Under the pieces are notes generated by a model that did no database searches, was not told the origin of the DNA, and worked only from the letters and a program-made list of their open reading frames with translations. Position numbers and translations under genes: made by a program. A stretch of 64,000 nt of DNA, from the NCBI GenBank assembly GCA_951406725.2, contig OX597826.1:17546001-17610000 (forward strand). Direction: 5' to 3'. Positions within the stretch are counted from its first letter, which is position 1. Every line of letters begins with the position of its first letter. This document shows, one piece after another, positions 22,150 through 62,612 of this stretch. The stretch is from Octopus vulgaris. Lineage: Eukaryota.

Positions 22150-22425
22150 AGTTTGAAAGGGATTTCGCTTCTGTGCTTGGTCTGCAAGATTCTTTATGTG
22201 AATTCATATTTGATTATGTCTGGGGAGAGTCATTCTCTTTTAGTGCCTTCATCATTTGACACACTCACTGGTTGGATTGCTACTCATTTATTTATTTTTT
22301 CTAAAATTTTTGCAACGAAAATTTTAGAAAAAAATAAATAACTAAATGAGTGGAAATTGAACAGGTGAGTGCGTTAAATAATGAGGCACAAAAAGAGAAT
22401 GACTCTCCCCAGACACAATGAAATG
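22150..22425. repeat. Fold-back (palindromic) copy of interspersed repeat family D
   Basis: Arms about 22212-22312 and 22316-22422 (gtctggggagagtcattctc...ctaaaattttt / cgaaaattttag...gagaatgactctccccagac); same family as 60463-61560. Confidence 0.85.
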
Positions 22426-37070: not shown

Positions 37071-38027
37071 TTTTAACGTCCGCTTTCCATGCTAGCATGG
37101 GTTGGACGATTTGACTGAAGACCGGCGAACCAGATGGCTGCACCAGGCTCCAATCTGATCCGGCAGAGTTTCTACAACTGGATGTCCTTCCTAATGCCAA
37201 CCACTCCAAGAGTGTAGTGGGTTATTTTACGTACAACCAGCACGAGGGCCAGTCAGGCAGTACTGGCAACAGCCATGCTCAAATGATGTTTTTTACGTGA
37301 CACCTGCACAGGAGCCAGTCCAGCGGTACCGGCAACAATCTCGCTCAAATATTTTTCATGTGTCACTGGCACAAGTGCCAGTAATGCAACGCTGGTAACG
37401 ATCATGCTCAAATGGTACTTTTTTACGTGCCACCGGCACAGAAGCCAGTCTACACTCGGATGGTGCTCTTAGCGCTCCACTAGCATGGATACCATTCGTT
37501 GAATTTGATTTCGATTTCGATTTCACTTGCCTCAACAGGTCTTTGCAAGCAGAGTTTAGTGTCCGATGAAGGAAAGGTACGTATAAGTAGGCTGGCTACA
37601 TTCCTGGTAAAGGCCATGGGTTATGGTTTCACTTGGCTTGCTGGGTCTTCTCAAGCACAGCATATTTCCAAAGGTCTTGGTCACTAGTCATTGCCTCAGT
37701 GAGGTCTAATGTTTGAAGGTCATGCTACACCACCTCATCCCAGGTCTTCCTGGGTCTACCTCTTCCACAGGTTCCCTCAACCGCTAGGGTGTGGCACTTT
37801 TTCACACAGCTATCCTCATCCATTTTCACCACATGACCATACCATATGTCTCTCTTGCACACCACATCTGACGCTTCTTAGGTCCAACTCTTCTCTCAAA
37901 GCACTTACACTCTGTCGAGTATGCTCACTGACATTACACATCAAGCGGAGCATACTGGCTTCATTCCTTGCAAGCTTATGCATGTTCTCAGCAGTCATGG
38001 CTCATGTTTCACTGCCATGTAGCATGG
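37027..38027 (-). mobile_element. RTE family B LINE 3' kilobase (ORF C-terminus, 3'UTR, tail)
   Basis: MLHGSET.AMTAENMHKLARNEASMLRLMCNVS...VKKCHT..GRGRPRKTWDEVV, continuous with the tail block. Confidence 0.92.
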
Positions 38028-51024: not shown

Positions 51025-51375
51025 ACACAAATATAAGAGAGAATCCACTATGTGGACGCTCCTGCACTAAAAATAGATCCGCAATGGTCTCAACGACCAA
51101 GAATTGTTCTCAAGAAAAATTAGCACAACTATGAACGTAAGCGAGCAGGACAAATGAAAAATAACAAAAATGTAGATTAACCCTAGACAATTGTTTCACA
51201 GTGAAACAATTGTCTAGGGTTAATCTACATTTTTGTTATTTTTCATTTGTCCTGCTCGCTTACGTTCATAGTTGTGCTAATTTTTCTTGAGAACAATTCT
51301 TGGTGGTTGGGACTATTGTGGATCTATTTTTAGCGCATGAGCGTCCACATAGTGGATTCTCTCTTATATTTGTGT
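51025..51375. repeat. 351-bp palindrome centred on base 51200
   Basis: 175-bp arms, 1-nt spacer; inner ~104 bp perfectly complementary, 6 mismatches in the outer part. Confidence 0.95.
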
Positions 51376-52639: not shown

Positions 52640-53850
52640 CTATGCTGGCATGGGTTGGACGATTTGACTGAGGACTGGTGAGCCAGATGGCTGCACCAGG
52701 CTTCAGTTTGATCTGGCAGAGTTTCTACAGCTGGATGCCCTTCCTAATGCCAACCACTCCAAGAGTGTAGTGGGTGTTTTTACATACCACCGTCACAAGG
52801 ACCAGTCATGCGGTACTGGCAATGGCCATGCTCAAATGGTGTTTTTTATGTGCTACCTGCACAGGAGCCAGTCCAGTGGCACTGGCAACGACCTCACTCA
52901 AATGTTGTTTTTCACTTGCCACCAGCACAAGTGCCAGCAAGGCGACAGTGGTAACAATCACGCTCAAATGGTGCTTTTTACATGCCACCAACACGGGAGC
53001 CAGTCAGCGGCCCTAGCAACAATCACACTTGGATGGTGCTTTTAGCGCTCCACTAGCACAGATGCCAGTCATGCGGTGCTGTCATCCAATCTAATTTTGA
53101 TTTCACTTGCCTTGACAGGTCTTCGCAAACAGAGTTTAGTGTCCAATGAAGGAAAGGTACGCATAAGTGGGCTGGGTACACCCCTGGCATAGGCCATGGA
53201 TTATGGTCTCACTTGGCTTGCCGAGTCTTCTCAAGCACAACATATTTTCAAAGGTCTCAGCCACTAGTCATTGCTTCGGTGGGACCTAATGTTTGAAGGT
53301 CATTTTTCCCACCTTATCCCAGGTCTTCCTGGGTCTACCTCCTCCTCAGGTTCCCTCAACTGCTAGGGTGTGACACTTTTTCACACAGCATCCATTCTCA
53401 CCACATGGCCATACCAACGCAGTCGTCTCTCTTGCACACCACATCTAATGCTTCTTAGGTCCAACTCTTCTCTCAAGGCACTTACACTCTGTTGAGTATG
53501 CACACTGACATTACACATCCAGCAGAGCATACTGGCTTCATTCCTTGCAAGCTTACGCATGTCCTCAGCAGTCAGGGCCCATGTTTCACTGCCATGTAGC
53601 ATGAACCCAAACTGCATCTCATCTAAACTGACTCTCTCCTTAATTAGTTGGTCTATGACCCTCTCCGTGACCTTCATTACCTGATCCAACAACTTGATAC
53701 CTCTGTAATTATTTGCATTTAATGCATCACCTTTACCTTTGTAGCAGTTGACTATGGTTCTGCTACACCAGTCATTGGGTATGACTCCTTCATGTATCAC
53801 CTGGTTAATTATATGGGTGACTAGGCTATAGCTGACACCGCCAGATATTT
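52640..53850 (-). mobile_element. RTE family B LINE with an internal RT deletion, full 3'UTR
   Basis: ORF 53381-53800 fuses the RT start (NYRGIKLL...EMQFGFM) to the C-terminal domain (LHGSETWALT...RRLRWYGHVVRMD). Confidence 0.92.
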
Positions 53851-59408: not shown

Positions 59409-59931
59409 GTCTATCAGTGCTAAAAAATGCTTGCTTACATTAAAGGTCACTTCGGGCGAGTAGTGGGATGTGAACCAGATAGTATTCCTATCCCTGTGTT
59501 TTCTTTTCTTTATTATTGGACTAGTGGCAGTCCAGAATAAGAATAAAGCGAGATACACGCAGGAAAAGTCTTGCCCAACGTATCGAGTAGGAATAATCCA
59601 ATAAGATTGCATAGGCCTGCTCCATCATATGACCCCATGCTCACATCGAAAGCACCCTCTGTATCGGTAGTCTTGACCCACTCTGCATTCCTGCTGAAGA
59701 GTAAAGTCTTTCTAGCATGGAAGATTATGTCCATATCCTGTTTACTGATTTCCATGAATTCGCTTGCGAAGGTGAGAGCTTTATCTAGCAGTTCCTTAGA
59801 GAATATCGAATTGCGTGTATCTCGCTTTATTCTTATTCTGGACTGCCACCAGTCCAATAATAAAGAAAAGAAAACACAGGAATAGGAATACTATCTGGTT
59901 CACACCCCACTACTCACTCGAAGTGACCTTT
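59405..59931 (-). mobile_element. Naiad-like Penelope element relic with 120-bp inverted repeats
   Basis: KELLDKALTFA...IIFHARKTLLF...WVK...FDVSMGSYDGA.LC.LIGLFLL and KRKHR.RNTIWF..HYS.EV..NVSKHFLALIDRH; arms 59442-59561 and 59812-59931. Confidence 0.85.
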
Positions 59932-60462
59932 GGTGTTTGTCATTTGGAGAACCGCTGGCCTACAAATGTATTGTATAATATTCTACATATAAAAATATTC
60001 TTATATATCTGCCTATGATTTCTGTCACTGGCAATGTTTATGTAAGCAAAAAATTTTTAAATCCTGACACAAAAGACTATTTAAAATCATCAAATGCAGG
60101 GCAGCCCAAAATTAAATACAGAAATTTTATAGAAAAATCCAAGGCTCAATGAGAAAACCTTAGTGGCCCTTTTATGGGACATAGTGCACTTATTGTTGAC
60201 TCCTTATTTAGTTCCATTCTACTCTGAAGAGAGAGAAGATTAGGGTTAAGTGAGTGATTAATGTACTTAATATTCTGCTTGAAATGTGGTTAGACACAGT
60301 GGAAACTCTGTATAAACTCTGCACTCCTTATACTATCTCTGCATTGTTCTGTTCACTCCCAAACTGCATATTAAACATTGATGCAAGTACTAGTTTAATG
60401 TTTCAAGCACTATGATAATTTAAATTAATCAAGATTTTATCAGTATCAAAGAAAAATAATCC

Positions 60463-61560
60463 TGTTGTGTCTGAGGAGAGTCATTTTCTTTTTGTGCCTT
60501 ATATTGTAACACACTCACCAGTAAAATTTCCACTTTTTTCTTATTTTTATTGTCCTAAAATTCTCGTTGCATCTTGCAACCTTTTCAATAGTTTTGACTC
60601 TGTCCCTTATTTACACTGCATTCCCTTTTGTTTGTTTGTGCGCATGTGTGTGGGTCAGTGTGTGTGTGTGTGTGCCTATACATGCATGCATGTACATATG
60701 TATGTATTATGTATGCTTGTGTGTGTATGTATATATGTGTGTGTATGCATATGTATATATGTATGTATGTGTGTGCATCTGTAAGTATGTATCCTGCATA
60801 TTTATGTGTTTGCATACATGTATGTATGTGTGTGGGTGTGAGTGTGTGTGTGTATGCACCCTTTTTTTTCCTGTATGTAAGCATATAGATATGAAAATAA
60901 ACAGATCAACATACAGACGGATAGGTACATAGGTTACAAGAACAGACACATATGGAGACACGGATCCACACATATAAAGATGCACATCCATACATACAAA
61001 CATGGTACATAGTTGCATAATACACACACACACACAGACTTGCACACACAAGGAGACAGAGGTGCATACATATACAAACACATGCTCACACACACATATA
61101 TAGAAAATACACAAGCACGGACAGGCAAGCACATAAATATGCAGGATACGTACATACAGATGCACACACACATATATACATACATACATATGCATACACA
61201 CATATATACATACATACACATGCAAACACACATATACATACATACATGCATGCATGTATAGGCACACACACACACACACACTGACCCACACACATGCGCA
61301 CAAACAAACAAAAAGGAACGCAGTGTAAATAACGGACAGAGTCAAGACTATTGAAAAGGTTGCAAGACGCAGCGAAAATTTTAGGACAATAAAAATAAGA
61401 GAAAAAGTGGAAATTTTACCAGTGAGTGTGTTACATAATAAGGTACAAAAAGAAAATGACTCTCCCCAGACACAACAGAATATGCTTCAATACACGAAGT
61501 CATATAAAGAATCTTGCAAACCAAATCCAAAAACGAAAGAAAAATAAATGTTATTAAATA
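60463..61560. repeat. Large inverted repeat of family D (arms about 60463-60812 and 61127-61477)
   Basis: Arms are complementary through both unique and microsatellite-like portions; spacer about 310 bp. Confidence 0.88.
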
Positions 61561-61654: not shown

Positions 61655-61852
61655 TTGTGCCACGTAAAAAAGCACTAAGTGCACTCTGCTGAGTGGTTGG
61701 TGTTTGGAAGAGCATCCAGCTGTAAAAATTCTGTCAAAACAGTCACAGAAATCTGATGCGGCCTTCTCCCTGGCCAGCTCCTGTCAAACTGACCCACCCA
61801 TGCCAGTATGGAAGGCAGACATTAAACGATGATGATGATGATGACGATGACG
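61655..61852 (+). mobile_element. RTE family B 3' terminus
   Basis: gtgccacgtaaaaaagcac...gcatccagctgta...attaaacgatgatgatg. Confidence 0.8.
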
Positions 61853-61870
61853 ACTTAAATGTGGATGTTC

Positions 61871-62113
61871 TACATTATTTACACTTGAGAGATATTTGTC
61901 CTCATCTTGTTTGTTGTTAACACAACATTTCAGCTGATATACCCTCCAGCCTTCATCAGGTGTACTGGAGAAATTTCGAACCTAGGTTCTCATTCCTAAG
62001 GTATTTTTCGATGTTATTATTATTATTATTATTATTATTCAGGTCACCACGGGCATATGGTGTAGTGGTTAAGAGTGCAGGCTACTAACCCCAAGTTTGA
62101 TTCCAGGTAGTGA

Positions 62114-62158
<45 letters not shown>

Positions 62159-62352
62159 CAGCAACAACATCGAAAAATACCTTCGGGATGAGAACCCAAG
62201 TTTGAAATTTCCCCAATACATCCGATGAAGGCTGGTGGGGTATATCAGCCGAAATGTTGTGTTAACAACAAACAAGATGAGGACAAATATCCGTCAAATG
62301 TAAATAATGTAAATAATATACATAATTCCTCGTCTCTTAAATACAGAACTGT
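61871..62352 (+). mobile_element. tRNA-headed, hammerhead-containing SINE-like element (62051-62352) with an inverted headless copy upstream (61871-62047)
   Basis: A box tggtgtagtgg and B box gtttgattcc at 62051-62108; (AAT)n; hammerhead cores at 62217-62263 (+) and 61919-61963 (-). Confidence 0.75.
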
Positions 62353-62612
62353 ATGTGGATGTTCTATAAGAACAAACATTTAAGTGGGTATAAATATTAT
62401 CTCTCCACATTAATACTGCCTGTATAGCTAATATATATTTTCAAATTAATAAATACTTTGTCCTAACATTCCCTTCAGAACAACACTTTCCATGGAAATC
62501 TTTTTCCCTCTGTCTATATTTACTCTCCATTCCCTGATCAGCAACAGTTTACAGAATATCAACCTTACCTTGTTGTCTTCTCTCTCTCTCTCTCTCTTAG
62601 ACTAGGAAGAGT

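Follow-up and report, generated by a model that had tools for sequence, protein, structure and literature searches.

The locus at 61859-62366 of the window (the whole 64,000-nucleotide stretch of Octopus vulgaris DNA analysed here) is a decayed two-armed copy of the pseudo-LTR (pLTR) of a Penelope-like element (PLE). The repeat unit, which the earlier note had read as a separate non-autonomous SINE/retrozyme hybrid, is the pLTR plus tail of an abundant ORF-coding PLE and not an independent SINE or retrozyme. The class of the element is known, and its unusual trait is a tRNA-derived head at the start of the pLTR. Taken as a whole, the locus is probably a decayed pLTR insertion of a coding PLE whose repeat starts with a tRNA-derived head, likely an RNA polymerase III (Pol III) promoter.

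Anatomy of the insertion in the window

Inverted-repeat comparison within the window revealed two inverted arms, 61859-62039 and 62142-62323, around a tRNA-like head. The right unit, on the plus strand, runs from the head (62051-62118, counted from the tRNA +1 equivalent at 62051; 62048-62118 as annotated) through an (AAT)n/(AAC)n spacer (62118-62167) into a 187-nt body with the long tail (62166-62352). The left arm (61871-62048, minus strand; 93% identity to the family majority) is the inverted copy, made of about 12 nt from the end of the head, then the spacer, then the body for its first ~147 nt up to the short-tail site. The whole structure is bracketed by a perfect 14-bp direct repeat (61859-61872 and 62353-62366, plus strand), a target-site duplication (TSD) where none had been obvious to the earlier note. 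The locus has the textbook tail-out form of a PLE insertion, its two tails being one long and one short, with a TSD of 14 bp. The unit had also been called non-coding, but its body holds the first ~55 codons of a PLE ORF, the N-terminus, with the ATG at 62188 and the frame now broken by a stop and a 1-nt insertion.

The inverted arms, the (AAT)n spacer and the U4-to-C change in the downstream hammerhead core were all found as previously described, while two other features held only in part. In the head, the A box (62058-62068, plus strand, by motif) and a B box (62094-62104, plus strand) are present, but compared with the majority head the B box has lost its conserved C by CpG decay (C to T), and this copy has an 8-nt deletion. 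With this deletion and the decayed B box, the window copy is likely dead. The upstream minimal type I hammerhead (61919-61964, minus strand; core at 61953-61959; predicted cut between 61924 and 61923), which had been regarded as intact, keeps all its core letters, but C11.1 and C15.2 are changed to U, with a G-U pair closing helix II and a U-G pair in helix III, both unlike the family majority, and folding at minimum energy gives a structure other than the hammerhead. The downstream one (62217-62263, plus strand; core at 62222-62228) carries the U4-to-C change and, judged from its letters, is likely inactive. Neither the tRNA nor the hammerhead was called by Rfam or ARAGORN, and both were identified by motif and alignment.

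Three PLE coding relics had been proposed for the window, but tblastn with two PLE family proteins matched this locus alone; more distant PLEs may be present. The target site of the insertion (61851-61872 and 62367-62386) is an imperfect inverted repeat. Several other structures were also recorded in the window: another repeat family with long inverted arms (~91% complementary) around a microsatellite-rich interior at 60459-61481 and also 22215-22417, which is MITE- or fold-back-like; 125-nt inverted arms (94% complementary, 250 nt apart) at 59437-59936, which look like an internal inversion in another element; a near-perfect ~120-bp hairpin palindrome at 51077-51323, with a spurious miRNA-family match in Rfam; and 66-bp tandem units from an abundant interspersed repeat family at 37225-37450 and 52773-53020.

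A coding element behind the repeat

Motif searches covered the whole genome (2.8 Gb in 227 contigs). A 33-nt hammerhead motif gave 2,166 exact matches and a 34-nt head motif 1,122, with 0 for either reversed control. Since the hammerhead motif is exact in 13 of 105 arms gathered by other searches, the 2,166 matches suggest, as a rough estimate, a family of roughly 17,000 arms.

In 5 of the first 30 hammerhead-anchored loci, a common upstream sequence translates as the end of a retroelement ORF. A motif taken from this ORF end matches exactly at 316 places, and of 30 such loci fetched, 29 run straight into the tRNA head. In the other direction, upstream walking showed that the body runs on into the N-terminal part of the ORF in 8 or more of 30 loci. 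Head, body and ORF are contiguous in L197 and L206, and L183 contains a tandem of ORF end, head, body and ORF, so that the pLTR repeat is present both before and after the ORF, a feature of PLEs. From this contiguity at both ends, the unit is the pLTR and tail of a coding PLE, although a single intact pLTR-ORF-pLTR copy was not found among the loci recovered. The earlier note had called for a PLE whose pLTR shares the hammerhead region, and this is such an element.

The majority ORF has ~830 codons from the ATG inside the body (window 62188), of which 826 were counted without a stop over three segments. Two breaks in it are seed artefacts, since the copies mostly have the missing letters (27 of 37 at one break, 46 of 53 at the other). 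The majority frame is open through the tail region, so an intron there, which had been considered, is unneeded. One of five natural ORF pieces matches RVT_1 (Pfam, E=1.3e-8), in line with a single reverse transcriptase (RT) ORF, and the C-terminal piece has nine database proteins at 43-68% identity, six of them with RVT_1. At the C-terminus a motif read by eye, with no Pfam match, is a putative GIY-YIG signature, and the ORF presumably belongs to the Penelope/Poseidon clade, an assignment made from domain order and motifs.

The head is consistently joined to the body, as the earlier note supposed: the body lies downstream in 27 of 30 head-anchored loci. A reading in which the head would belong to a separate SINE, with the body inserting at the (AAT)n tails of other elements, was rejected, since head and body are linked and headless cases often have the 3' end of another retroelement in the (AAT)n. 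At least three other retroelement families end at this spacer (L008, L022, L060 and L232; L226, L235 and L247; L052, L231 and L254), which is apparently a landing site for them. One of these families looks Dong/R4-like.

The view nearest to the earlier note is that the short copies are Pol III-transcribed masters, a PLE-dependent SINE amplifying apart from the full element. Short copies outnumber ORF-linked ones by ~3:1, every short copy has the promoter boxes, and long arms also have both priming sites. However, short and ORF-linked arms show no fixed non-CpG difference, a subfamily search gave no diagnostic site, and the median divergence is 4.1% for ORF-linked and 3.7% for short arms (P=0.63); this comparison of 97 short with 62 ORF-linked arms was partly ascertained on motifs, and the CpG differences reflect that ascertainment. 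Moreover, the anole PLE protein requires RNA ~55 nt past the priming sites (PMC11167929), which solo copies lack. We consider an independent SINE improbable. As this head and body also make up the coding PLE's pLTR, and variants and age are common to both copy types, the separate hybrid of the earlier note is set aside, while its proposal of mobilisation by a PLE agrees with a unit that is the pLTR of a coding PLE with tail-out insertions. At ~4% divergence, the family looks inactive.

The tRNA-derived head and the 5' ends of copies

In the majority head (161 hits), both the A box, lying seven bases in, and the B box are perfect. The head is collinear with genomic tRNA-Arg genes (z of 7-8 versus shuffles) with tRNA-Ala close behind, and the comparison used 30 genes, an incomplete set in which the isotype is not firm. 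The cloverleaf is no longer formed by the head (0 of 30 loci). By its sequence, the head can be identified as tRNA-derived with A and B boxes, and a transcript start by Pol III at the head is probable; as the repeat begins with a tRNA-type promoter, the whole element was likely read by this polymerase. In three raw RNA runs the family is present, with the depth falling from ~2,000 to below 15 after the tail, and these runs contain no start or end pile-ups. Because they are unstranded and possibly from another species, they carry no weight for or against Pol III, and A>G differences in them are not readable as editing.

The 5' ends of 89 anchor arms fall in the body (13), in or at the (AAT)n (22), in the head (9), between -20 and +20 (34) and in the ORF (11), and several of those in the (AAT)n tract arise from other retroelements inserted there. 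When only arms reaching head +20 are counted, 34 of 45 end between -20 and +20 and 11 continue. In the head-anchored set, 26 of 30 end at the head start, and genome-wide motif matches point in the same direction (2,521 for the head start versus 955 for the ORF end). A control PLE family without the head, a single family from another clade with two loci counted by both arms, has 1 such end in 22 (Fisher P=2e-8 versus 34/45), and its highest share in any 41-nt window is 21%. This control family (L277-L336), of PLE type and younger, ends at (TA)n tracts, and its 3' repeat is without the canonical CUGANGA hammerhead core.

More precisely, 54 of 97 short-arm ends lie between -6 and +1 with the mode at -6. 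The pile-up marks the template start, not which polymerase made the template. The ORF-head junction is a hairpin (z=-2.0). Rotifer PLEs are known to carry palindromes where their pLTRs begin at the 5' end (PMC3846280), and by analogy stalling at the junction hairpin could contribute to the pile-up.

A Pol III transcript running end to end, if true, would require that the 2.6-kb unit has no T4 terminator. The sense strand of the majority unit has 0 T4 runs, and no site has T4 in 15% of copies. With its own codons permuted, 2.9 runs are expected (P(0)=0.025), and 4.4 with the codon usage of the control family (P=0.004), while the control ORF has 10 versus 10.6 expected. Under Markov nulls the depletion reaches P=0.056 (first-order) and P=0.20 (second-order), and TTTT is only the 10th most depleted among 256 4-mers. 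The T4 depletion is modest.

This weakness of the T4 statistics is one of the points in favour of an ordinary Pol II PLE with a passenger, in which a short tRNA-derived SINE ending in (AAT)n at some time landed behind the ORF, and the short copies are truncations at the junction hairpin or reflect a coincident Pol II start. The hairpin itself, fold-back junctions (about 7 of 24 arms scored) and the internal Pol II promoter known in the Penelope pLTR (PMC2377424) fit it as well. Nevertheless, the -6 to +1 ends heap beyond the 3' strand of the hairpin, and several arms ending at -6/-5 are joined to unrelated sequence. The majority A and B boxes are perfect despite the lost cloverleaf, and zero T4 runs stand against 10 in the control ORF. 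We regard a passenger head as unlikely, at perhaps one chance among several, and prefer the head as a Pol III promoter.

Insertion, hammerhead and wider meaning

Insertion anatomy was scored in 89 loci, drawn from the first 30 hammerhead-motif matches listed plus 60 of the 64 that followed, all on contig C1; two partner arms, two loci already in the set and L046 (the same locus as L045) were left out. The two-armed, tail-out arrangement is found in 59 of them, and in 57 of these 59 a long and a short 3' end are paired, ~35-40 nt apart. A flanking direct repeat scoring at least 10 is present in 30 of the 59 (three of low complexity); among 600 mismatched pairs the rate is 1.3%, and of 24 single-armed loci 2 have such a repeat. 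An inverted copy, a tail and a TSD are described for PLE insertions (PMC8557442; PMC3846280), and the anole element has two internal priming sites and cleaves both target strands in vitro (PMC11167929). With its paired ends and TSDs, the octopus family supports, from a large genomic sample, priming at two sites with both target strands used.

The family majority (105 arms) has a 5-bp helix I, CUGAUGA, an extra A, a 5-6-bp helix II, GAAA and a palindromic two-pair helix III, with the predicted cut after GUU, so the hammerhead motif that the earlier note expected in a consensus is there. All core letters are kept in 48 of 105 arms. The minimal type I hammerhead is described as having the core, a helix I of 4-5 bp, an extra base before helix II, G10.1-C11.1 and a palindromic helix III (PMC4209133). 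By sequence comparison the family majority corresponds to this form, and both window copies deviate from it.

Such a motif, together with head-to-tail repeats in 3 of 89 loci, is what would be expected of a retrozyme-like element spreading via hammerhead-cut circular RNA, the route suggested by the earlier note. However, there are no arrays, and within 2 nt of the predicted cut only 1 of 159 body pieces starts and 0 end. As the two hammerheads of a tail-out pair are on opposite strands, no monomer would be released from it. No cut-site joints occur among the joints listed from the RNA runs, which were made without circle enrichment. With ends off the cut site and so few head-to-tail loci, the circular-RNA reading is unsupported, and we consider it very improbable. 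For the anole element, protein was required for cleavage, and insertion in vitro did not depend on cleavage (PMC11167929).

Genomic copies follow an unbroken order of ORF end, head, (AAT)n, body, tail and ORF start, the insertions have tails and TSDs, and the short copies stop at the head. The following mechanism could account for these observations, and we consider it more likely than not. The RNA, most likely made by Pol III, would start ~6 nt before the head and, without T4 runs, could continue past the end of the ORF to reach the following pLTR. The protein of the element would nick both target strands and prime at two internal sites ~35-40 nt apart, as in the anole element. Priming in the first pLTR would give ~300-nt cDNAs running off the RNA 5' end, that is, the SINE-like copies, while priming in the downstream pLTR would give ORF-bearing, randomly truncated copies. 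Microhomology or fold-back would then link the two cDNAs, one from each nicked strand, in the tail-out arrangement. As for the hammerhead, it would depend on a dimer or on help from protein and would leave no mark on the insertion ends. First-pLTR priming of this kind predicts that short copies dominate yet form no subfamily. A bolder reading, which we put forward tentatively at slightly under an even chance, is that an autonomous coding Penelope with a captured tRNA-derived promoter was transcribed end to end by Pol III and shed thousands of SINE-like copies by internal priming, which would be a LINE-free birth of SINEs.

Compared with known systems, the family works like an EN+ PLE, with which it agrees in the RT ORF, the repeat on both sides of the ORF, the inverted copy with a tail on one end, and the hammerhead motif. 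It is neither non-coding and distinct from an autonomous partner, as an independent SINE would be, nor generally arranged in head-to-tail units as in a retrozyme. Like Penelope/Poseidon PLEs in the available descriptions (Poseidon_Ac, PMC11167929; Adineta Pen2a, PMC3846280; PMC8557442), it has an RT ORF of ~830 aa with a putative C-terminal nuclease-like motif, a pLTR with the hammerhead and ORF start, an inverted 5' copy, a palindrome at the pLTR 5' end, a 30-40-nt tail on one arm and a TSD of about 9-14 bp. Unlike them, the octopus pLTR opens with a tRNA-derived head containing A and B boxes, followed by (AAT)n; the promoters described for PLEs resemble those of Pol II (PMC2377424), including a TATA/Inr-like one (PMC3846280). 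Schistosoma SM-alpha and Sj-alpha (reviewed in PMC6765202) share a Pol III-type promoter followed by a type I hammerhead, but they are described as non-coding and often tandem with canonical hammerheads, whereas the octopus unit is part of a coding PLE, tail-out, with a minimal hammerhead. The TRIMp3 elements Helenus, Ajax and Cassandra likewise captured a small-RNA-derived Pol III promoter in a terminal repeat, yet are non-autonomous LTR elements while the octopus family is an ORF-coding PLE (PMC10886601). Metazoan non-LTR retrozymes have the type I hammerhead, pLTR kinship and PLE dependence in common with it, but are reported as tandem arrays and circles, in contrast to a dispersed, tail-out, coding family (PMC7229834; bioRxiv 10.64898/2026.07.22.740005). 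No description of a PLE with a tRNA-derived pLTR was found in a literature search that most subscription papers lay outside of, and repeat collections may already list the short unit among their unclassified SINEs. One octopus annotation contains 190 Penelope-like consensus sequences (PMC13282606).

In the literature available, autonomous retrotransposons are described as transcribed by Pol II (or co-transcribed with the host), and Pol III promoters are a mark of non-autonomous ones (PMC10886601). If true, a coding PLE under a tRNA-type promoter would break this split between Pol II/autonomous and Pol III/non-autonomous elements, and would pose the problem of how RNA lacking a cap comes to be translated. 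It would also show that repeats resembling SINEs can in fact be PLE end repeats, a point of importance for annotating repeats in the SINE-rich genomes of cephalopods.
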